Positions 517 through 10,620 of a DNA stretch of 47,810 bases are shown in pieces. The stretch's first letter is position 1. The number at the start of each line of letters is the position of its first letter. The DNA comes from Candidatus Methylomirabilis sp. (GTDB taxonomy: Bacteria; Methylomirabilota; Methylomirabilia; Methylomirabilales; 2-02-FULL-66-22). The notes under the pieces were generated by a model that did not search any database, was not told where the DNA came from, and was given only the letters and a program-made list of their open reading frames with translations. The position numbers and the translations under genes are program-made. Location of the stretch: contig JBBIQE010000007.1 in NCBI GenBank assembly GCA_037442485.1, positions 1-47,810 of the forward strand, given 5' to 3'.

Positions 517-909
517 TTACCTGATCTCGCCCCTGACCATCCGGGCGATCAGCCGGCGATCCGCCTCGAGGAAGTCGTAGCACGAAAGGTCGGTCATCTT
601 CACCCACTCGATCCGCGCGAAGGCGCGATTCGTCAGCCTTCCGGTGTATCCGGAAATCCGGAAGAACAGCAGGCGGACGGCGAGGCCGTCGGCGTAGCGG
701 TGCTCCGTCCGGTACACCTCCTGCCCCACCTCCGCCTGGATGGCCAGCTCTTCCCTGAGCTCGCGGCGCAGGCACGCCTCGGGCGACTCGCCCGGCTCCA
801 CCTTGCCGCCTGGCAACTCCCACTTCAGGGGGAACCGCGCCGTGGCGGGGCGCTGGCAAACCAGGACCCGGTCCCCCTCGGTCAGAAGGCCGGCCGTGAC
901 CGTGATCAT
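517..909 (-). CDS. mutT: NUDIX hydrolase, MutT/NudG-like (d)NTP pyrophosphohydrolase
   Basis: Nudix box WELPGGKVEPGESPEACLRRELREELAI. The ATG at 909 overlaps the TRAP permease stop (ATGA). Sits next to mutY. Confidence 0.8.
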   Translation of the reverse strand: MITVTAGLLTEGDRVLVCQRPATARFPLKWELPGGKVEPGESPEACLRRELREELAIQAEVGQEVYRTEHRYADGLAVRLLFFRISGYTGRLTNRAFARIEWVKMTDLSCYDFLEADRRLIARMVRGEIR

Positions 910-2765
910 CTGCCCGCCCGATGGAATCGCGCCCAGGCCAGCGTCACCCCGGCCACCGCCAGCCCGACGATTTCCAGGCCCGCCCTGGGGAAGACGAGCA
1001 GCACCGCCGCCGCCATCAGGAGCGCCCGCTGCGCGCGACTCAAGGGGTGCACGAAGAACCCGATGAGCCCCGCGGCCAGGCACACGACCCCGAGCGCCGT
1101 GAGGCCGAAGGCCCGGGCCACCGCCGGCCAACTCCCCTGCAGGAGCAGGGCCGGCTGGTACACGAAGGCGAAGGGGACCAGGAAGCCGGCGATGCCCAGC
1201 CGAAAGGCCTCGATCCCCGTGGCCATCATCTCCGAGCCAGCCAGGTTGGCCGCGGCAAAGGCCGTGATGGCGTCCGGCGGCGTGAGGTCCGAGAGCACGG
1301 CGTAGTAGAAAACGAACAGGTGCGCCGCCAGCACCGCGACCCCCAGCTTCCCCATGGCGGCGGCGCCGATCGTCACCGCGATGACATAGGCCGCCGTCGT
1401 CGGGATCCCGGTGCCGAGCACGCTCACCACCAGAAAGATCAGGATCATGGTGAGGACCAGGCTCTGCCCGGAGACGTCCAGGATCATCCCGCTGAAGGCC
1501 AGGGCCGCCCCCGTCCGGGTGAGGGTCGCCACGATCATCCCCGACCCCGCCAGGGCTGCCGCGATCAGGGCCGCGCTCACCGCGGACTCGAACAGGGCCT
1601 CGCGGATCTTCTCCCAGCCCATGCGGGTCTTGCCGTCCAGGAAGCTCAGGCCGAAGGTGATGACGATCACGAAGAAGGCCGCCTTGGTGGGCGAGTAGCC
1701 CTGGGCCAGGAAGTGCAGGACGAGCAGGAACGGGGCGAAGTAGTAGGCTCGGCGCAGCATGGGACGCCAGGAGGGCAGCTCCGCCCTCGGCGTCGGCGGC
1801 ATCCCCGAACTGAGCGCGATGAAGTGCACCATGCTGAAGACGCCGATGTAATAGAGGATGGCCGGGATGGCCGCGGCCTTGATGATCTGGAAGTAGGGGA
1901 CGCCCGTCACCTCGGCCATGATGAAGGCCCCGGCCCCCATGATGGGCGGCATGATCTGCCCGCCCGTCCCGGCGATGGCCTCGATGGCCGCGGCCTGCTT
2001 GGGCGTGAAGCCGCGTCGCTTCATCAGCGGGATGGTGAAGGAGCCCGTGGCGTACACGTTGGCCACGGTGCTGCCGCTCACGGTCCCGTAGAGGGCGCTG
2101 GCCAGGACAGCGATCTTGGCCGCGCCGCCCCGCGCCCAGCCCGCGGCCCAGACGGCGAAGTCCATCAGGAAATCGCCCACCCCCGCCTTCATCATCACGC
2201 CCGCGAACAGGATGTAGATGAAGAGGATGGTGGCCGAGATGCCCGTGAGGAACCCGAACATCCCCTCATCCCCGGCGAGGTACATGATCTCGACCATGCG
2301 GGGAAACGAGTAGCCCTTGAACTGGAGGATCCCCGGCATGTAGGGGGCGGCCGCCAGGTAGGCCAGGAAGAGGAGGATGGTCGCCGCCATCCAGCGCGAG
2401 AGCGAGCGCCGGCAGGCCTCGATCACCAGGCCGGCGAGGAGGCTGCCCAGCAGCACCTCGACGGGCAGGACGTCATCCACCCCCTGGAAGCGGAAGTTCA
2501 GGCGCTCCGCGTTCCAGACGGTATAGCCGCAGGCCGCGGCCGCCGTGGCGGCGAAGAGGGCGTCCGGGAGGCTGGGGCGGTCCCGGGGAGAGCGTCGCGT
2601 GGCCGGGTAGAGGAGGAAGATCAGCGGCAGCAGCAGGAGCAGGTGCAGGCCCCGCATCAGCCGCGGCTCCAGCGAGCCGTAGCCGGCGGTGTAGAAGTGG
2701 AAGAGCGAGGCGGCGCAGCCATACAGGGTGACCGCCCCCTTGAGCGCCCCCGACAGCCTCCGCAT
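906..2765 (-). CDS. TRAP transporter 4TM/12TM fused permease (TAXI type)
   Basis: 619 aa polytopic protein with motifs GTVSGSTVANV, GSFTIPLMK, GGQIMPPIMGAGAFIMAE, GIPTTAAY and HLFVFYY..SDLTPP; adjacent to a TAXI receptor gene. Confidence 0.93.
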   Translation of the reverse strand: MRRLSGALKGAVTLYGCAASLFHFYTAGYGSLEPRLMRGLHLLLLLPLIFLLYPATRRSPRDRPSLPDALFAATAAAACGYTVWNAERLNFRFQGVDDVLPVEVLLGSLLAGLVIEACRRSLSRWMAATILLFLAYLAAAPYMPGILQFKGYSFPRMVEIMYLAGDEGMFGFLTGISATILFIYILFAGVMMKAGVGDFLMDFAVWAAGWARGGAAKIAVLASALYGTVSGSTVANVYATGSFTIPLMKRRGFTPKQAAAIEAIAGTGGQIMPPIMGAGAFIMAEVTGVPYFQIIKAAAIPAILYYIGVFSMVHFIALSSGMPPTPRAELPSWRPMLRRAYYFAPFLLVLHFLAQGYSPTKAAFFVIVITFGLSFLDGKTRMGWEKIREALFESAVSAALIAAALAGSGMIVATLTRTGAALAFSGMILDVSGQSLVLTMILIFLVVSVLGTGIPTTAAYVIAVTIGAAAMGKLGVAVLAAHLFVFYYAVLSDLTPPDAITAFAAANLAGSEMMATGIEAFRLGIAGFLVPFAFVYQPALLLQGSWPAVARAFGLTALGVVCLAAGLIGFFVHPLSRAQRALLMAAAVLLVFPRAGLEIVGLAVAGVTLAWARFHRAGR

Positions 2766-3017: not shown

Positions 3018-4031
3018 TTACTTCAGGTAGCCCTTCTCCCGATAGTACTTCTCGGCCCCGGGATGGAGCGGGATCCCGGTGGCCGTGGGGCCGTAGCTCG
3101 GCTGGTAGGGCTGGAGGCTGGCGTGCAGCTTCCGGAGCCGATCCAGATTCTCGTTGATCGCCTTGGCCAGCGTGTAGGCCACCTCGTCAGGCACGTTCTT
3201 GTTGGCCACGATGACGCTGCCCATGGTGGCCGAGGTGATCTCTTCGTCCGCGTTGGCGGCCTTGGGATACGTCCCCCTGGGGATCTTGCCGCTGCCCAGG
3301 CCGAACTTGGCCAGATACTCCAGGAGGCCCGGCGGGAAGTTCAGCAGGCGCAGCGGCCGGCCGAGGGAGGCCTCGGTCACCGCGGCGCCCGGCAGGGCCA
3401 GGAAAGTGAAGGTGGCGTCCACGTTCCGATCCTTGAAGTTGGCCGCCTGCTCCGAATAGGAGCCCCGGAAGAACTTGAACCCGGCCGCCTCCAGCTCCTT
3501 GTAGTCGGTCCCGTAATAGGCCATGACCTTCCGGAACACCCACTCGTCCGACGTCCCCGTCGGCGAGATGGCAATCCGGATGGCCTTCTTCTGCTTGAAG
3601 ATCTCGTCCATGGTCTTGAACGGGGTCTCGGCCCCCACGTAGAAGTGGAAGGTGTTCACGCTCATCCCGCCCGCGATGGCCCGCAGGTTCTGCATCTTGC
3701 GTCCGCCCTGCGGCGGCTTGTCGTAGGGGTCCTCCCCGTTCCAGGCGGCGTTCAGGACCGGGGGCAGTCCCCACCCCAGCTCGGCATCGCCCTTGTCAAT
3801 CAGCGGGGGATTTTGCGTCCCGCCGCCCGGGATCACCTTGACGTTGATCCCGGTGCTCTCCCGGATCAGCTCTGCGATGCCCCCGGCCATGATGTACCAG
3901 CCGCCGCCCACCGGCCCTGCGGTCCAGGTGAGTGCGACCGGCTTCGCCTGGGCCGCGACCCCGGACACACTCGAGACGATCCCCAGGCCCATGGCGACGA
4001 GTACGACCCCCCAGGTTCGATGCCGCCTCAT
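3018..4031 (-). CDS. TAXI-family TRAP transporter solute-binding protein
   Basis: Signal peptide, then TAGPVGGGWY, GGGTQN, IPRGTY and the C-terminal IPLHPGAEKYYREKG typical of TAXI receptors. GGAGG RBS. Confidence 0.93.
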   Translation of the reverse strand: MRRHRTWGVVLVAMGLGIVSSVSGVAAQAKPVALTWTAGPVGGGWYIMAGGIAELIRESTGINVKVIPGGGTQNPPLIDKGDAELGWGLPPVLNAAWNGEDPYDKPPQGGRKMQNLRAIAGGMSVNTFHFYVGAETPFKTMDEIFKQKKAIRIAISPTGTSDEWVFRKVMAYYGTDYKELEAAGFKFFRGSYSEQAANFKDRNVDATFTFLALPGAAVTEASLGRPLRLLNFPPGLLEYLAKFGLGSGKIPRGTYPKAANADEEITSATMGSVIVANKNVPDEVAYTLAKAINENLDRLRKLHASLQPYQPSYGPTATGIPLHPGAEKYYREKGYLK

Positions 4032-4087
4032 GACTCCCTCCTCCGTGTTCGGGCTCGGCCGCTTCTGCCCTCACGAATCCGCGCCAC

Positions 4088-4116
4088 ACGGTAATCAAAG
4101 GAGCACACCCGGTCAA
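4088..4116 (-). promoter_or_regulatory. sigma70-type promoter of the TAXI-TRAP/mutT/mutY operon
   Basis: Minus strand TTGACC-N17-TACCGT, about 55 nt upstream of the receptor start. Confidence 0.6.
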
Positions 4117-4286
4117 GGGATTTTTCCGCCAGCCGAACGGCCGCGTGGTGGTTCGGTCGGGCGAGCGCCAAAATGCTTGCGCGCCGACCTTTCCCCCTGT
4201 AAACATAGGGGGCCTTCGGCGGCCAGCCCCCCGGCCTGGGGGCCGGCCTGCTGACCGCCGACGGTTCCCACCGGCACGGAGGGCTC

Positions 4287-4877
4287 ATGACCGAACCTGG
4301 ACGGGCGCGAGGATCGTCCGCGGAGGGGACGCACCGGGTGGGGTCGGGCTGGATCGCCCGGGCCATGCTCCTCGCCGCCCTGATCGCCACGGCGGCTTCC
4401 ACTGGAGCCGGGACCGCCTCCGGCGGGATGGGCATGGCCCGCGTCGGAAGCCCTGCGCCGGATTTCACCTTGCGGCTGCTCGACGGAAAGAGCGTCACGC
4501 TCTCCAGCTTCCGGGGCAAACCCGTTCTCGTCAACTTCTGGCACTCGGGGTGACCGCACTGCCAACGGGAGGCTCCCGTTCTGGAGCAGTTGTACCGGAA
4601 GTATCGCGGCAAGGGTTTGGTCTTCCTCAGCGTCAACGTCGCATGGGACAAGGAGGCTCCTGCGAGGAAATTCGTGGAGGACTACCGCCTGTCCCTCCCG
4701 GTGGGGCGCGACGCGGACGGGAAGATCGGCGACCTCTATGGCATCGACGCCACGCCGATCACCCTTTTCATCGGAAAGGACGGCAAGCTCCTGGATCGCC
4801 TGGAGGGCGCCCCGGAGGACGTGAAGGCCGTCGAGGCCGGGCTCGAGCAGCGGATCAACTGGCTGCTGGCAGGCTGA
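4287..4877 (+). CDS. Selenocysteine-containing TlpA/ResA-family thiol-disulfide oxidoreductase (UxxC), exported
   Basis: ORFs 4287-4553 and 4590-4877 are in the same frame. The TGA at 4551-4553 gives [16 protein letters not shown], aligning with [16 protein letters not shown] of the neighbouring paralog. A SECIS-like hairpin follows immediately. N-terminal hydrophobic signal, GGAGG RBS and cis-Pro loop DATP are present. Confidence 0.88.
4554..4590 (+). promoter_or_regulatory. Candidate bacterial SECIS element
   Basis: Upper stem AACGGGA(4564-70)/TCCCGTT(4574-80) with apical GGC; lower stem ACTGC(4558-62)/GCAGT(4586-90). The apical loop is 17 nt after the UGA. Confidence 0.75.
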
Positions 4878-4923
4878 GGCCCGGCGGCCGGGCGGAGAGG
4901 CTCTGGGGCGCGAAAGGACGGCC

Positions 4924-5517
4924 ATGGGAAAGCGCCGGTTGGCCAAGGCACCCTCGGCAAGGGAGAAGCGACAGGAGAAGTCCCGGCGAACCTTCTGGAT
5001 CGTGGGCATCGGGCTGGCGGTGGTGATCGGCGGGCTGATCGGGCTGCTGATCTACCAGAGCCAGCAGCCGCCCGGGGCCCTGGCCGGAAGGCCTGCGCCG
5101 GACTTCACCCTCAGGCTGCTCGACGGGCAGAGCGTCGCGCTCTCCAGCCTGAGGGGCAAGCCGGTGGTGGTGAACTTCTGGGCCTCCACCTGCCCGCACT
5201 GCCAACGGGAGGCTCCCGTTCTGGCGCAGGTGTACGAGAAGTACAAGGACCAGGGCCTGGCGTTTCTCAGCGTCAACGTCGCCTGGGACACCGAGGGCGG
5301 AGCGAAGAAATTCGTGGAGGCCTACCACCTGCCCTTCCCCGTGGGGCGCGACGCCGGCGGGAGGATCGCCGGCCTGTACGCCGTGGACGCCACGCCGACC
5401 ACCTTCTTCATCGGGAAGGACGGAAAGGTCGTGTCCCGGGTGGACGGGGCCCCGGAAGAGGTCGCGGCGATCAGGGCCGGCCTGGAGCAGCGGATCGAAA
5501 AGCTCCTGGCGGGCTGA
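4924..5517 (+). CDS. TlpA/ResA-family thiol-disulfide oxidoreductase (CPHC), membrane-anchored
   Basis: Basic N-terminus plus one TM helix, APDFTL, VNFWASTCPHC and DATP. About 100/141 residues identical (manual count, ungapped) to the upstream Sec paralog. Confidence 0.92.
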   Translation: MGKRRLAKAPSAREKRQEKSRRTFWIVGIGLAVVIGGLIGLLIYQSQQPPGALAGRPAPDFTLRLLDGQSVALSSLRGKPVVVNFWASTCPHCQREAPVLAQVYEKYKDQGLAFLSVNVAWDTEGGAKKFVEAYHLPFPVGRDAGGRIAGLYAVDATPTTFFIGKDGKVVSRVDGAPEEVAAIRAGLEQRIEKLLAG

Positions 5518-5671
5518 CCTCGCGCAGCCCGCCCCGCCTCGGTGGGAGAGCTTGCAAGTCCAGGCCGCCTTCCCCGGTTTGCGGGCGGCCGCACCCTCTC
5601 GTGCAGTCGGTGTGGGGGGTGGCTCGGTCTTTCCGGCAACCGGGAACCCTCCCGTGTTCCCCTCGGGACCG

Positions 5672-5863
5672 CTACCAGAAGATCACCCTGAGCGCCAGGC
5701 GCTGGCCGATCCCGGCGAAGCCTCCCCGGTTGCCGGTGATCCGCCTGGCCCCGGCCTCCCTGGCAGACAGGGCGATCAGGGTGTCGCCTGCCAGGTCCCT
5801 CGGCGTGCCGGGATCGCACCCCTTCCTCGCCCCGAAGCGGGGAAGGACCTCTCTCCCGGACAT
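5672..5863 (-). pseudogene. Degraded C-terminal fragment of a PIN-domain (VapC-like) protein
   Basis: Reads ...RDLAGDTLIALSAREAGARRITGNRGGFAGI..., resembling the PIN C-terminal pattern D-x-L-I-A-x-S-A-x3-G-A-x2-(I/V)-T-x-N-x2-D-F with the last Asp lost. No N-terminal half or antitoxin visible. Confidence 0.5.
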
Positions 5864-5877
5864 TCTCCCCTTGCGCC

Positions 5878-5907
5878 TTGACGCGGGGGACATCCGATCC
5901 GTAGGAT
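5878..5907 (+). promoter_or_regulatory. sigma70-type promoter of the hox operon
   Basis: TTGACG-N18-TAGGAT about 110 nt upstream of hoxF; a CATCC/GGATG inverted repeat overlaps the spacer and -10. Confidence 0.5.
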
Positions 5908-6018
5908 GCGGCCTGGGAGGGGCGTCGAATCGTTGGCGCGGCGTATTCGGCCCGTCAGCGGGGCGCCCGGGACCGGGCGGCTCGCTGTCGGGCCATCCCG
6001 TACCCAGTGAGGCCGCCC

Positions 6019-7836
6019 ATGCTCGCGCTCGCCAGGGACATCCGGGAGATCGGCAGGACCTTCGGCAACGACCCCACCCGTCTGCTGGACATCCTCCGGG
6101 CCGTTCAAGCCAAGTACGGCTGCGTCTCCAGTCGGGCCCTCGACCTCATCGCCAAGACCGTGCAGGTCCCGCGGGTCGAGGTGGAGGGCGTCGTCTCGTT
6201 CTACGCCTTCCTCTCCGTGCAGCCCAAAGGCCAGGTGGTGATCCGCCTCTGCAACGACGTGATTGACGAGATGTTCGGCGCCGAGAAGGTGGCCCAGGCC
6301 TTCATGGAGGAGCTGGGCATCGGCCTCGGCGAGACCACGCCGGACGGCAAGATCACGCTGGAGACGACCCCCTGCATCGGGATGTGCGACCAGGCGCCGG
6401 CCGCCCTGGTGAACGACGTGGTCGTGACGTCCCTGTGGAGCGACAAGGCCCGCGAGATCGTCCGGCTGCTCCGGGAGACCGGCGATCCCCGGCGGCTGGT
6501 GCGGCGCCTCGGCGATGGCAACAACGCCCACCCCCTGGTCCGCGCCATGGTCCACAACAACATCCGGCGCGAGGGACCGGTGGTGCTGGCCCCCCTGACC
6601 CCCGGGGGGCCGCTCCGCAAGGCCCTGGCCATGAGTCCGGTCGAGGTCATCAACGACATCAAGACCTCGCGCCTGCGCGGCCGGGGCGGGGCGGGCTTCC
6701 CCACCGGGATGAAGTGGGAGTTCACCCGGGCCGCCGAGGGCGGAAGGAAGTGCGTCATCTGCAACGCGGACGAGGGCGAGCCGGGCACGTTCAAGGACCG
6801 GGTGATCCTGACGGAGAATCCGGACCTCGTCTTCGAGGGCATGACCATCGCGGGCTATGCCATCGGCGCGGACCTCGGCATCCTCTACCTCCGGGCCGAG
6901 TACGCCTACCTGCGGGCCTTCCTGGAGCAGGTGCTGCAGGCGCGGCGCGACCAGCATCTGCTGGGCCAGGACATCCTGGGCAAGCGGGGCTTCCACTTCG
7001 ATATCCGCATCCAGATGGGGGCGGGCGCTTACGTCTGCGGCGAAGAGACGGCCCTGATCAGCTCCTGCGAGGGGCAGCGCGGGGACCCGAAGAACCGGCC
7101 CCCCTTCCCGGCGCAGCGGGGCTACCTGGGCATGCCCACCACCGTCAACAACGTGGAGACCTTCTGCTGTGCCGCCCGCATCCTGGACAACGGCCCCGGC
7201 TGGTTCGCCGCCATCGGCTCGCGCGGGAGCACCGGGACCAAGCTGCTGAGCGTCTCGGGCGACTGCTCCGGCCCCGGCGTGTACGAGGTGCCCTTCGGGA
7301 TCCCGCTGCGGGAGCTTTTGACCCTCGTCGGCGCCGAGGATGCCCAGGCCGTCCAGGTGGGCGGTCCCTCGGGCCGGATGGTGGGGCCCAGGGACTTCGA
7401 CCGGACCATCTGCTACGACGACCTGGCCACGGGGGGGGCGGTGATGGTCTTCGGCCCGAACCGCAACCTCCTCAAGGTCGTGCTGAAGTTCCTGGACTTC
7501 TTCGTCGAGGAGAGCTGCGGCTACTGCACCCCCTGCCGCGTGGGCACGCGCCTGATGCAGCAGAGGCTGGAGGCCCTCCTGGAGGGCCGGGGCGAGGTCG
7601 GCGACCTGGAGTATTTGCAGGAGCTCGGCGCCACCCTGAAGCTCGCCAGCCGCTGCGGCCTGGGGCAGAGCGCGGCCAACCCGGTGCTCAGCAGCATCCA
7701 GGCCTTCCGCCCCGCCTACGAGGCCCGGCTCCAGGCGCGGCCGCGGGAGATGGGCCGCCCCTCCTTCGACATCCGGGCGGCCCTGCAGGAGGCCGAGCAG
7801 CTCACGGGCCGGCCGTCCGAACTCTTCGCAGGGTGA
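6019..7836 (+). CDS. hoxF: NAD-reducing [NiFe]-hydrogenase diaphorase large subunit (NuoE-like + NuoF-like fusion)
   Basis: N-terminal NuoE-like domain (VVSFYAF, CIGMCDQAPA), then LRGRGGAGFPTG, CNADEGEPGTFKDR, GAGAYVCGEETALISSCEG and ESCGYCTPCRVG...CGLG. ATG 6019 has a GAGG RBS. Confidence 0.93.
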   Translation: MLALARDIREIGRTFGNDPTRLLDILRAVQAKYGCVSSRALDLIAKTVQVPRVEVEGVVSFYAFLSVQPKGQVVIRLCNDVIDEMFGAEKVAQAFMEELGIGLGETTPDGKITLETTPCIGMCDQAPAALVNDVVVTSLWSDKAREIVRLLRETGDPRRLVRRLGDGNNAHPLVRAMVHNNIRREGPVVLAPLTPGGPLRKALAMSPVEVINDIKTSRLRGRGGAGFPTGMKWEFTRAAEGGRKCVICNADEGEPGTFKDRVILTENPDLVFEGMTIAGYAIGADLGILYLRAEYAYLRAFLEQVLQARRDQHLLGQDILGKRGFHFDIRIQMGAGAYVCGEETALISSCEGQRGDPKNRPPFPAQRGYLGMPTTVNNVETFCCAARILDNGPGWFAAIGSRGSTGTKLLSVSGDCSGPGVYEVPFGIPLRELLTLVGAEDAQAVQVGGPSGRMVGPRDFDRTICYDDLATGGAVMVFGPNRNLLKVVLKFLDFFVEESCGYCTPCRVGTRLMQQRLEALLEGRGEVGDLEYLQELGATLKLASRCGLGQSAANPVLSSIQAFRPAYEARLQARPREMGRPSFDIRAALQEAEQLTGRPSELFAG

Positions 7837-7852
7837 GCCGGGGGACGAGAAC

Positions 7853-8575
7853 ATGGGCGACAGCTTCCTCTTCAGCATCGACGGGATCCAGCTCGCGGGG
7901 ACCCCGGGGCAGACGATCCTCCAGGCGGCCGACCAGGCCGGCATCTACATCCCGCGCCTCTGCGCCCACAAGGACCTCGTGCCCTTCGGCGCCTGCCGGG
8001 TCTGCACCGTGATGGTCAATGGCCGCCCCCAGGCGGCCTGCACCACCCCCGCCGCGGCCGGCATGGTGGTGGAGAACGACACCGAGCCGCTCACGAGGCA
8101 CCGCATGAGCCTGGTGGAGATGCTGTTCGTGGAAGGGAACCACTTCTGCATGTTCTGCGAGAAGAGCGGCCACTGCGAGCTGCAGGCCCTGGCCTACCGG
8201 TTCGGCATCCTGGCCCCGCGCCACCCGTACCAGTTCCCGCGGCGGGACCTCGACGCCAGCCACCCCGACGTCCTGATCGACCGCAACCGCTGCATCCTCT
8301 GCGCCCGCTGCGTCCGGGCCTCGCGCGACCTGGACGGCAAGCACGTCTTCCAGTTCGTGGGCCGCGGTGCGCACAAGAAGATCTGGGTGAATGCCGAGGC
8401 GCGTCTCGCCGACACGGACCTCACCCGCGCCGACCGGGCCGTGGACATCTGCCCGGTGGGCGCCATCCTGCGCAAGCGGATCGGCTACCGGGTGCCGGTG
8501 GGCCAGCGCCCCTACGACGTGAAACCCATCGGCTCGGACATCCAGGCCAGGCGACCGGCCGCGCCGGGCCGGTAG
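7853..8575 (+). CDS. hoxU: NAD-reducing hydrogenase diaphorase small Fe-S subunit (NuoG N-terminal-like)
   Basis: IPRLC..GACRVC..AC [2Fe-2S], HFCMFCEKSGHC, CILCARCVRAS and CPVGAI. Confidence 0.92.
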   Translation: MGDSFLFSIDGIQLAGTPGQTILQAADQAGIYIPRLCAHKDLVPFGACRVCTVMVNGRPQAACTTPAAAGMVVENDTEPLTRHRMSLVEMLFVEGNHFCMFCEKSGHCELQALAYRFGILAPRHPYQFPRRDLDASHPDVLIDRNRCILCARCVRASRDLDGKHVFQFVGRGAHKKIWVNAEARLADTDLTRADRAVDICPVGAILRKRIGYRVPVGQRPYDVKPIGSDIQARRPAAPGR

Positions 8576-8592
8576 CGGAGAGGAAGGCCGCC

Positions 8593-9138
8593 ATGGCGAA
8601 ACCCCGGGTGGCAACGGCATCGCTGGCGGGCTGCTTCGGCTGCCACATGTCGCTGCTCGACATCGACGAGCGGATCCTGGAGCTCTTCGAGCTGGTGGAG
8701 CTGGACCGGTCCCCCCTGAACGACCTCAAGCACTTCACCGGCCGGTGCGCCATCGGCCTCGTCGAGGGGGGCTGCTGTAACGAGGAGAACGTGCGCGTCC
8801 TGCGCGAGTTCCGCGCCCACTGCGACCTCCTGGTGTCGGTGGGGGAGTGCGCCATCGGCGGCGGCATCCCCGCCATGCGAAACGGTCTGCCCCTGCGGGA
8901 GTGCCTGGACGAGGCCTACCGGAAGGGGCCCACGGTGTTCAACCCCTCGGGGGAGTACCCCAGCCACCCGGACCTCCCCCTGCTCCTGGACAAGGTCTAC
9001 CCCTGCCACGAGGTCGTCCAGGTGGATCACTTCATCCAGGGTTGTCCGCCGCCGGCCGACGCCATCTGGGCGACCCTCACGGCGCTGCTCCGGCAGCAGC
9101 CCGTGCGGCTCCCCTACCCGCTCGTGAAATACGATTGA
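8593..9138 (+). CDS. hoxY: [NiFe]-hydrogenase small subunit (one [4Fe-4S])
   Basis: LAGCFGCHMS, VGECAIGGGIPAMRN and GCPP; 181 aa. Confidence 0.93.
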   Translation: MAKPRVATASLAGCFGCHMSLLDIDERILELFELVELDRSPLNDLKHFTGRCAIGLVEGGCCNEENVRVLREFRAHCDLLVSVGECAIGGGIPAMRNGLPLRECLDEAYRKGPTVFNPSGEYPSHPDLPLLLDKVYPCHEVVQVDHFIQGCPPPADAIWATLTALLRQQPVRLPYPLVKYD

Positions 9139-9153
9139 GCGCGGAGACATGCT

Positions 9154-10620
9154 ATGGCACCCGTTGCCGGAAGCCCCCGGAAGATCGTCATCCAGCCCCT
9201 CACCCGTGTGGAGGGACACGGCAAGGTCACCATCCTGCTGGACGAGGAGGGGAGGGTGGAGCAGGCGCGGCTCCACATCGTGGAGTTCCGCGGCTTCGAG
9301 CGCTTCATCCAGGGCCGGCCCTTCTGGGAGGTCCCGGTCCTGGTGCAGCGGCTGTGCGGCATCTGCCCCGTCAGCCACCACCTGGCGGCGGCCAAGGCCA
9401 TGGACCGGATCGTGGGCGGGGAGCAGCTCACCGCTACGGCCGAGAAGGTGCGCCGGCTCATGCACTACGGCCAGATCCTCCAGTCGCACGCGCTGCACTT
9501 CTTCCACCTGGCCTCGCCGGACCTGCTCTTCGGCTTCGAGGCCGACCCCGGCCTCCGCAACGTGATCGGCGTGGCCCGGAAATACCCGGATCTCGCCCTC
9601 CAGGGGGTGAGGCTGCGCCAGTACGGGCAGGAGATCATCCGGGCCACCGCGGGCAAGAAGATCCACGGGACGGGCGCCATCCCCGGCGGCGTGAACAAGA
9701 ACCTCTCCATCGCCGAGCGGGACGGCTTCCTCACGGACATCGGGCAGATCCTGGACTGGTGCCGGGGCGCCCTCGCCCTCGCCCGTGACTACACCTCGGA
9801 GCATCTGAAGGAGCTGGCCGATTTCGGCTCCTTCGATTCGAACCACCTGTCGCTGGTCCGATCCGACGGCGCCCTGGATCTTTACCACGGCAACCTCCGC
9901 GCCATTGACGCGGCGGGCGGGAAGATCTTCGACCAGGTGGACTACCAGCACTACCTCGACTACATCGCCGAGGAGGTCAAGCCCTGGTCCTACATGAAGT
10001 TTCCCTTCCTCAGGTCGCTCGGCCCCGAGCGGGGCTTCTACCGCGTCGGCCCGCTGGCCCGCCTGAACGCCTGCGACTTCATCGACACCCCCGAGGCCGA
10101 GGCCGCCCGCAGGGAGTTCCGGGCCCTCACGGGCGGCCGGCCCAACCAGATCACCATGGCCTACCACTGGGCCCGCATGATCGAGCTCCTGCACGCGGCC
10201 GAGAAGATCCAGGCGCTGCTTCACGACCCGGATCTGCAGGGCAGCGACCTCGTGGTGGCGGGGGGGGCGCGGCGGGAGGAGGCCGTGGGCCTCATCGAGG
10301 CCCCGCGCGGGACGCTGTTCCACCACTACCGGGTAGACCGAAACGACCAGGTCGTCCGCTGCAACCTGATCGTCTCCACCACCAGCAACAACATGCCCAT
10401 GAACCTGGCCGTGGAGCGCGTGGCGCGCGAGTACCTGTCGGGGGCGGAACTCACGGAGGGGCTGCTCAACCGGATCGAGGTGGCCATCCGGGCCTACGAC
10501 CCGTGCCTGTCCTGTGCCACCCACGCCCTGGGCCAGATGCCGCTCCTGGTCGAGCTGCGGGACGCCGCGGGGCGGCTGCTGGACCGGAAGGTGCGGGGAG
10601 AGCCGGGCCATGGCGGATAG
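9154..10620 (+). CDS. hoxH: Group 3d [NiFe]-hydrogenase large subunit
   Basis: TRVEGHGK, RGFE, L1 RLCGICPVSHH, EAPRGTLFHHY and L2 DPCLSCATH followed by a cleavable C-terminal tail. Confidence 0.95.
   Translation: MAPVAGSPRKIVIQPLTRVEGHGKVTILLDEEGRVEQARLHIVEFRGFERFIQGRPFWEVPVLVQRLCGICPVSHHLAAAKAMDRIVGGEQLTATAEKVRRLMHYGQILQSHALHFFHLASPDLLFGFEADPGLRNVIGVARKYPDLALQGVRLRQYGQEIIRATAGKKIHGTGAIPGGVNKNLSIAERDGFLTDIGQILDWCRGALALARDYTSEHLKELADFGSFDSNHLSLVRSDGALDLYHGNLRAIDAAGGKIFDQVDYQHYLDYIAEEVKPWSYMKFPFLRSLGPERGFYRVGPLARLNACDFIDTPEAEAARREFRALTGGRPNQITMAYHWARMIELLHAAEKIQALLHDPDLQGSDLVVAGGARREEAVGLIEAPRGTLFHHYRVDRNDQVVRCNLIVSTTSNNMPMNLAVERVAREYLSGAELTEGLLNRIEVAIRAYDPCLSCATHALGQMPLLVELRDAAGRLLDRKVRGEPGHGG

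Follow-up and report, generated by a model that had tools for sequence, protein, structure and literature searches.

A putative exported selenoprotein of the ResA/TlpA type with a U-P-H-C active site in Candidatus Methylomirabilis

In a 47,810-nucleotide stretch of DNA from Candidatus Methylomirabilis sp. (the window), two open reading frames, 4287-4553 and 4590-4877, lie in the same frame, and the sole break between them is a TGA at codon 89. The locus thus raises the question of whether it holds the remains of a gene, two small genes, or one gene whose TGA is read through. A sequence-only reading had proposed that the TGA falls at exactly the first Cys of a CxxC motif and encodes selenocysteine (Sec), with a neighbour about 71% identical as the template; the position of the TGA was verified, and the identity to the neighbour is 71% over residues 51-196. 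We consider it very probable, on the basis of sequence comparison, that a single intact gene spans 4287-4877 and that its product is an extracytoplasmic thiol-disulfide oxidoreductase of the ResA/TlpA/CcmG type; Sec would take the place of the attacking Cys in it, and the UGA would be decoded via SelB and a hairpin. The Sec reading of the TGA is strongly supported. The data show the single frame, the conserved TGA column and RNA hairpin, purifying selection past the TGA, most of the Sec machinery, the fold and the hydrophobic N-terminal segments; the actual insertion of Sec, the topology, the redox direction and the substrate of the protein are inferred. The features of the locus are listed in Table 1.

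Table 1. Features of the selenoprotein locus and its tandem neighbour, in window coordinates
Feature	Position	Strand	Remarks
Selenoprotein gene (predicted), complete with stop	4287..4877	+	196 residues; ResA/TlpA-like; active site U89-P-H-C92
Hydrophobic N-terminal segment W22-S38, signal peptide or anchor	4350..4400	+	best 15-residue Kyte-Doolittle mean 1.98, heuristic
In-frame TGA, read as selenocysteine U89	4551..4553	+	aligned to the N-terminal (attacking) Cys of the ResA CxxC
Codon TGC of the resolving Cys92 of UxxC	4560..4562	+	C40 of alignment A3, invariant in 42/42 sequences
SECIS hairpin (predicted)	4564..4580	+	7-bp stem AACGGGA/TCCCGTT, loop GGC; conserved pairing; bSECIS criteria
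Proline codon of the conserved cis-Pro loop (T156-P157)	4755..4757	+	T104/P105 of A3 invariant; ResA P-T loop aligned
Ordinary TGA stop of the selenoprotein gene	4875..4877	+	homologue alignments terminate here
Tandem paralogue, Cys form	4924..5517	+	TGC 5191-5193; basic tail, transmembrane anchor; nested among Sec forms
Fossil SECIS hairpin in the Cys paralogue	5204..5220	+	inside 31 nt (5194-5224) identical to 4554-4584

The TGA column among relatives and in read assemblies

A six-frame search of the window genome and 40 relatives gave matches in 41 of 41 genomes, and nearly all of the closest matches carried one in-frame TGA. From 50 loci, 53 homologous genes were excised; this set leaves out L051, which belongs to the unpublished genome G028, and the own-genome paralogue L021, which falls outside the motif pattern. 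Comparison of the 53 genes revealed a TGA at the first-Cys column in all 43 genes of the Sec clade (34 genomes, six families, one order), and TGC or TGT at the same column in the other 10, which is the alternation that the sequence-only reading had anticipated among homologues. In a phylum-wide scan of 251 genomes, 59 reached E <= 1e-32; these are the window genome and 58 of 65 relatives, all within the order to which the window belongs. The other six families, with 185 genomes, gave no match. Counted by TGA number alone, 68 of the 77 places listed at this threshold hold exactly one in-frame TGA (66 of the 74 places listed when the unpublished genomes G028 and G050 are set aside); the position of the TGA column was verified in the 43 genes.

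Analysis of seven orthologue pairs gave dN/dS values of 0.18-0.35 after the TGA versus 0.13-0.20 before it. The values past the TGA indicate that the downstream part is translated, and this purifying selection bears out the proposal that the sequence beyond the TGA is undegraded. A search for related loci among genome contigs, with the protein as query, gave only two distant Cys-type relatives with 33-34% identity. Public gene calls show full-length relatives solely with Cys, or with W, at the TGA site, which fits the expectation that standard gene callers split the gene; the clade is therefore under-annotated, though not a new kind of protein.

Confirmation of the TGA was carried out on Logan contigs from four sequencing runs (X1, X2, X3 and X4) rather than on raw reads, and the TGA is kept in three of them. 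It is unchanged in the contigs of X1, which may be the source sample, in records 8 and 9 of X2 (another sample of the same study) and in record 19 of X4 (another study, with a more distant strain). A 2.2-kb contig of X3 follows the first tandem copy up to 4549 and continues from 5190 onward, which results in a single hybrid gene with a Cys codon. Record 13 of the same run spans the end of the first copy and the start of the second, and the contigs cannot rank these X3 forms by abundance.

The hairpin behind the TGA and the selenocysteine machinery

Immediately downstream of the TGA, the arms 4564-4570 and 4574-4580 enclose the loop at 4571-4573 and form the predicted SECIS hairpin. As set out in section 5 of PMC13188914, the bSECIS model comprises a loop of 3-9 nt with a G within its first two positions, a stem of 4-16 bp, a UGA-to-loop distance of 16-37 nt and a minimum free energy of -7.5 kcal/mol or lower. 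With a 3-nt loop, 7 bp, a UGA-to-loop spacing of 17 nt and -8.1 kcal/mol when folded alone, the hairpin agrees with every one of these published values. The folding energy is not beyond chance in GC-rich DNA (z = -0.54, with 55 of 200 shuffles equal), and since the energy is no better than that of shuffled sequences, the case for a SECIS rests on comparative evidence.

In a set of 32 sequences, RNAalifold predicted solely the 7-bp upper stem, in which 98.6% of the cells are paired. Two basal pairs of this stem covary, each changing from AU to GC in 2 sequences and one of them also to GU in 5, while the other five of the seven pairs are invariant and therefore uninformative for covariation. The loop is GGC, GTC or GTT in 32 of 32 aligned rows. 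The sequence-only reading had described this hairpin on top of a lower stem, ACTGC/GCAGT. The upper hairpin is present and conserved; the lower stem pairs in the window yet is not conserved, as 51% of its cells pair among 31 distinct sequences versus the 98.6% of the upper stem.

Codon usage within the hairpin is strongly constrained. Across the 43 Sec genes, the hairpin codons CGG, GAG and CCC are each found in 43 of 43 rows with zero synonymous entropy, and the hairpin Ala codon is always GCT (33/33 Ala rows in the entropy tally, 37/37 in the rare-codon tally); the entropy of other invariant Gly, Leu, Thr and Pro codons of these genes is 1.1-1.9. Outside the hairpin, GCT makes up 5% of the Ala codons in the same 43 rows, GTT makes up 8% of the Val codons versus 31 of 39 inside, and CAA accounts for 24% versus 30 of 39 inside. 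The argument from A/T-ending codons (CAA, GCT and GTT), which had been made for these GC-rich genes, is confirmed in the 43 Sec rows, where these codons are uncommon elsewhere and enriched in the hairpin. Because the hairpin lies within the codons for Q-R-E-A-P-V, their synonymous positions are frozen. Part of the hairpin conservation is owed to the protein, because E-x-P is also conserved in Cys homologues such as ResA. Two older Cys forms within the clade (L055 and L056) keep Q-x-E-A-P-V, and in these genes the codons have drifted (CAG CAG GAG GCG CCC GTC) and the stem is lost, which is how a relaxed RNA constraint should appear in sequence. A scan of the window at Rfam gathering thresholds gave no match, and this SECIS would not be expected among the Rfam families.

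The window genome consists of 196 contigs and is 70.7% complete. Its tRNA-Sec reaches 79.3 bits where the gathering score is 47, and it was identified by ARAGORN as SeC with the anticodon tca. On the same contig, C20, 2 kb upstream of the tRNA-Sec, lies selB (356 bits against a cut-off of 242), and two selD genes carry one in-frame TGA each. Searches of this genome with TIGR00474 and PF03841 did not recover selA. Among 21 genomes searched (G000 and 20 relatives), 17 have the gene, including nine of nine high-quality ones, and the four genomes without it are 68-87% complete. Of the machinery on which the selenocysteine reading depends, tRNA-Sec, selB and selD were accordingly recovered, and selA was not found in the 70.7%-complete assembly. 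As a side observation, the SECIS hairpins of the selD genes have small, G-first loops, one of them with a 7-bp stem and a GUC loop, a resemblance too weak to serve as evidence.

Several other readings of the TGA were weighed against these data. That it is a nonsense mutation or a sequencing or assembly error, in a pseudogene or a gene that really has TGC or TGT, would agree with the TGC of the tandem neighbour, with the X3 contig that joins 4549 to 5190 in a Cys form, and with public protein sets, where close relatives occur in a Cys form (P0002). An error shared by all 43 Sec-clade rows from 34 genomes and by the contigs of X1, X2 and X4 is extremely unlikely, however, and a pseudogene is hardly compatible with the dN/dS of 0.18-0.35 after the TGA and with a hairpin conserved at synonymous sites. 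We also regard as very unlikely that the UGA stands for one of the standard amino acids, be it Trp, Gly or Cys, through an altered code or SECIS-independent read-through. A W is printed at this site in two public calls of relatives (P0003 and P0009), presumably from a TGA=W table, but TGA serves as the stop of this gene, of its paralogue and of a hoxY-like gene (9136-9138), and reading through every TGA would extend the frame to 8780. UGA is not generally reassigned, because the selenoprotein gene and the Cys paralogue both terminate with it. Furthermore, the genome carries tRNA-Sec, selB and Sec-containing selD genes, and a synonymously fixed hairpin is needed by SelB recoding, not by plain read-through. 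Mechanical ORF calling does yield two separate genes of 88 and about 95 residues, 4287-4553 and 4590-4877, with the second starting from TTG. Such a division would cut through the CxxC of a single thioredoxin-fold domain modelled at a pLDDT of 95.7, conservation within the gene is highest in the 12 codons that separate the TGA from the TTG, and the Cys homologues are single proteins, which leaves the two-gene reading a next to negligible chance.

Fold, export and presumed chemistry of the protein

The best Pfam match of the protein is AhpC-TSA (PF00578, 89 bits), with Redoxin (PF08534, 82.5 bits) and PF13098 (33.1 bits) behind it. All NCBIfam models remained below their cut-offs, the best being ResA NF002854 (108.7 vs 170), with DsbE TIGR00385 at 48.5 vs 123.15, TlpA NF047696 at 46.1 vs 230 and PrxU NF040737 at 25.9 vs 270; the ResA-like WAxxUGC model NF041054 reached 55.3 vs 300, and the motif here is U-P-H-C, not U-G-C. 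Sequence comparison places ResA chains closest among the solved structures (4nmu, E 1.1e-23). In this alignment, U89 lies opposite the first Cys of ResA, and E95 lies opposite a Glu three residues past the second Cys, which we take to be ResA Glu80, a numbering supported by the PDB title 'ResA E80Q'. The Glu at this position is invariant in alignment A3. The AF2 model, for which 42 sequences were aligned, reached a pLDDT of 95.7, and its helix 1 begins one residue after the U. Its top PDB structure matches are ResA chains with a TM-score of 0.89 and an rmsd of 1.4 Å, and the description of the protein as a TlpA-like redoxin with a UxxC site fits this ResA/TlpA fold. The cis conformation at P157 is presumed by analogy with the family. 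The P-H dipeptide between U and C is of the DsbA type, and it has been engineered into ResA as a CPHC variant according to the title of PDB 3c71.

Among 44 rows (the 43 Sec rows and the window Cys copy), 40 contain a 15-residue stretch with a mean hydropathy of at least 1.6 ahead of the domain. The four rows without such a segment comprise two with twin-arginine motifs, one cut by a contig end and one with an unclear start. Inspection by eye distinguished three types of N-terminus: a basic tail with a transmembrane anchor in most members of genus g1, including the window Cys copy; an RR[EQD]F[IL] Tat motif in six rows, with two other matches to the pattern discounted because they lie before the likely start; and a short signal peptide ending in A-Q-A-A-H-A-A before the domain in family f7. 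The hydrophobic N-terminal segment on which export had been proposed is thus present by the hydropathy heuristic, and this scale, together with the motifs, suggests that the domain is extracytoplasmic.

By analogy with ResA, TlpA and CcmG, a mechanism can be outlined for the putative selenoprotein. SelB carrying Sec-tRNA(Sec), recruited by the downstream hairpin with its 7-bp stem and G-G-C loop, would decode the UGA at 4551-4553. The N-terminal hydrophobic segment would let the domain be carried across the cytoplasmic membrane or anchored in it. There, the selenolate may attack a disulfide of the substrate or oxidised sulfur of another kind, Cys92 would resolve the mixed selenylsulfide, and the resulting Se-S bond would be re-reduced via a membrane electron carrier of the CcdA/DsbD type. 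A DsbD_TM/CcdA homologue scoring above the cut-off is encoded on contig C22, and a weaker one lies on contig C26 by two Cys-type TlpA paralogues; a route for reducing equivalents therefore exists in the genome.

The surroundings of the gene do not point to a partner. No conserved redox partner adjoins it, and its neighbours differ between lineages, with MutY at 7 loci and a TAXI-type receptor (including the window), Usp and a Rex-like regulator at 4 each; because of this variation, the context names no substrate. Genes for cytochrome c maturation, Sco/Cox or copper centres were not found alongside. A promoter and terminator scan of 3950-6100 gave nothing usable on operon structure. A downstream candidate for a Sec-containing formate dehydrogenase, where 6007-10620 is open with two TGAs, was rejected, as translation revealed Hox-type hydrogenase genes with ordinary TGA stops.

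The protein might also be a genuine selenoprotein of another activity, that is, a peroxidase, a sulfenate or oxidant scavenger ('Prx-like') or a thiol oxidase instead of a disulfide reductase of the ResA/CcmG type. Several features are compatible with such a role, including AhpC-TSA as the best Pfam match, the DsbA-type P-H dipeptide (compare CPHC in 3c71), the absence of adjacent cytochrome c maturation or Sco/Cox genes, and the Rex-like regulator that adjoins the gene in family f7. Peroxiredoxins carry the motif P-x-x-x-T-x-x-C/U, with the T three residues before the active residue. The row V-N-F-W-H-S-G-U has neither T at -3 nor P at -7, however; all the closest solved structures are extracytoplasmic thiol-disulfide oxidoreductases, and the Glu opposite ResA Glu80 never varies. 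On balance we consider a peroxidase, scavenger or oxidase function unlikely, although it deserves some weight, and we favour a disulfide reductase of the ResA/CcmG type.

The tandem Cys neighbour and the relation to known selenoproteins

The window gene is followed by a tandem paralogue that has Cys at the active site. The identity of 5194-5224 to 4554-4584 means that this Cys neighbour carries the same hairpin. Neither the 31-nt identity nor the hairpin of the neighbour was mentioned in the sequence-only reading. A maximum-likelihood tree of the 53 rows was built by a quick method under LG+G4, with Sec and Cys given the same code in their column. It unites the 43 Sec rows and 3 Cys rows in a single clade, which a branch with an SH-aLRT of 100 splits from seven C-P-P-C paralogues. 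The window Cys copy nests with Sec genes, namely the second tandem copy of G008 and the genes of G003 and G012, and both tandem copies carry TGA in G008 and G017. The distribution of Sec and Cys on the tree requires three state changes. Elsewhere, the Sec and Cys copies share about 78% nucleotide identity with dS of 0.44-0.70, and a 31-nt identical run taken alone is not very improbable in this pair (rough estimate, order of 0.1). The best reading of the tree, the decay in L055/L056 and the 31 nt together is that the Cys neighbour arose through a recent TGA-to-TGC change with the SECIS kept; alternatively, gene conversion may hold a now useless SECIS in place.

A bolder proposal is that the U-P-H-C clade constitutes a lineage-specific, Se-dependent periplasmic enzyme, such as a fast thiol oxidase or isomerase or an oxidant scavenger, which would combine the DsbA-type P-H and Sec on a ResA scaffold, and that the tandem Sec/Cys pair with its identical 31 nt acts as a recombination switch. 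We hold this to be quite improbable. If such a switch were real, populations could toggle between Se-dependent and Se-independent forms, and the X3 hybrid would be one outcome.

With respect to known families, the surveys ascribe a 'Prx-like' family of thiol:disulfide oxidoreductases (pfam00578, with UxxC or UxxU) to a 2004 study of prokaryotic selenoproteomes (PMC9312934, PMC13188914) and describe the family as remotely similar to Prx, its UXXC motif being thioredoxin-like (PMC1088965). The putative selenoprotein resembles this family in its top Pfam match (PF00578), in Sec as the first residue of UxxC with Cys three residues on, and in a SECIS directly downstream. It differs in that the clade is specific to one order and has a fixed U-P-H-C-Q-R-E, and in export signals, which go unmentioned in the family descriptions as far as these were available. 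By domain and Sec motif, the naming rule of PMC9312934, it would fall under the Prx-like family, which has WP_010940744.1 as its reference protein. A 'Redoxin family protein' (PF08534, UxxC) likewise appears among the catalogued families in the tables consulted (PMC1794560, PMC9312934, PMC1088965, PMC13188914). The likeness to these TlpA-like or Redoxin UxxC families lies in the PF08534 and PF13098 matches, and the families, in the portions of these sources that we consulted, are defined by domain and motif alone.

The likeness to ResA (Bacillus), TlpA (Bradyrhizobium) and CcmG/DsbE/CycY, which are membrane-anchored extracytoplasmic reductases with a thioredoxin fold, extends to the fold, the placement of CxxC where helix 1 begins, the Glu opposite ResA Glu80, the cis-Pro loop and, as a prediction, an anchor or signal at the N-terminus. 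The protein differs from them in Sec for the first Cys, in a P-H dipeptide unlike that of ResA, and in scores under the NCBIfam cut-offs. The existence of NF041054, a curated ResA-like selenoprotein family, means that Sec in a ResA scaffold has already been recognised, but its profile has 354 positions against 196 residues here. PMC13188914 cites another study for a MAG of Methylomirabilota in which 63 selenoprotein genes were predicted. In the literature on selenoproteins of Methylomirabilis or Methylomirabilota, no title or abstract opening on this protein was found, and the clade may already be present in the supplementary lists of earlier surveys. According to these surveys, catalogues have listed UxxC selenoproteins of the TlpA/Prx-like kind since 2004-2005, and the window gene adds a member rather than a new type.

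The locus leaves the knowledge of the Sec insertion mechanism, and of the kinds of protein that use Sec, unchanged. It corrects the annotation, in that a gene cut at codon 89 by gene callers would be an intact selenoprotein conserved across the order. It adds a thioredoxin-fold selenoprotein that is probably extracytoplasmic, with three kinds of export signal among its orthologues, including the twin-arginine type. The clade further provides a very clean natural SECIS data set, with a 13-nt core identical across 43 genes, and two independent losses of Sec to Cys; after the old loss the hairpin has decayed, whereas after the recent one it is intact. Selenoprotein finders could be calibrated on this family, and the loss of Sec could be dated with it.

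Selenocysteine machinery and public gene calls

The genome of the window (G000) contains two selD genes, and its selB and tRNA-Sec genes lie on one contig, C20, on which no selA adjoins them (see the table). In the public protein calls P0003 and P0009 from relatives, W is printed at the position of the TGA proposed to encode Sec, presumably because a table reading TGA as W was applied to short contigs.

Coordinates of Sec machinery genes in G000 and of neighbouring genes in the window
Feature	Location	Strand	Remark
selD gene 1	C9:27062-27988		in-frame TGA at match residue 11
selD gene 2	C65:17006-17950		in-frame TGA at match residue 11
selB and tRNA-Sec	C20:30816-34978		separated by 2 kb
TRAP-type transporter gene	window 906-2765	-	
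TRAP-type transporter gene	window 3018-4031	-	
NuoE/F-like gene	window 6007-7836	+	by eye
Small ORF	window 7853-8575	+	by eye
Small-subunit-like gene	window 8593-9138	+	by eye; ends in ordinary TGA
Large-subunit-like gene	window 9154-10620	+	by eye; C-terminus ...DPCLSCATH

A possible hybrid allele of the tandem copies

In sequencing run X3 from another study, a 2.2-kb contig (record 12), 95-99% alike to the window, fuses the Sec-form copy 1 to its Cys-form tandem paralogue, copy 2 (4549 joined to 5190), yielding a single hybrid gene with a Cys codon at the active site. The join falls just 5' of the 31-nt block shared by the two copies, and X3 also contains a contig that runs from copy 1 into copy 2 across the boundary between them. 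The hybrid may represent a deletion or recombination allele at this SECIS-containing block.

Genomic neighbours

The two TRAP-type genes lie in divergent orientation, one encoding a fused transporter permease and the other a TAXI-like receptor. This neighbour occurs at four loci, the window included, and its orthologous counterpart at L032 matches Pfam NMT1_3. Judged by eye, the downstream operon (6007-10620, +) looks like an NAD-coupled bidirectional [NiFe] hydrogenase. Elsewhere in G000, C26:2290-9267 resembles an ordinary CcdA-TlpA cluster, with a weak, sub-cut-off DsbD_TM/CcdA-like match (23.6 bits) between two Cys-type TlpA-like paralogues. In family f7 of the window's order, a Rex-like redox-sensing regulator (Put_DNA-bind_N and CoA_binding domains) adjoins the Sec gene at L039, L040, L045, and L046.

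Twin-arginine signals in one subclade

Twin-arginine signals of the form RR[EQD]F[IL] occur in one subclade of the Sec family (L035, L038, L041, L042, L063, and L064). These proteins would be thioredoxin-fold selenoproteins that Tat exports in the folded state.
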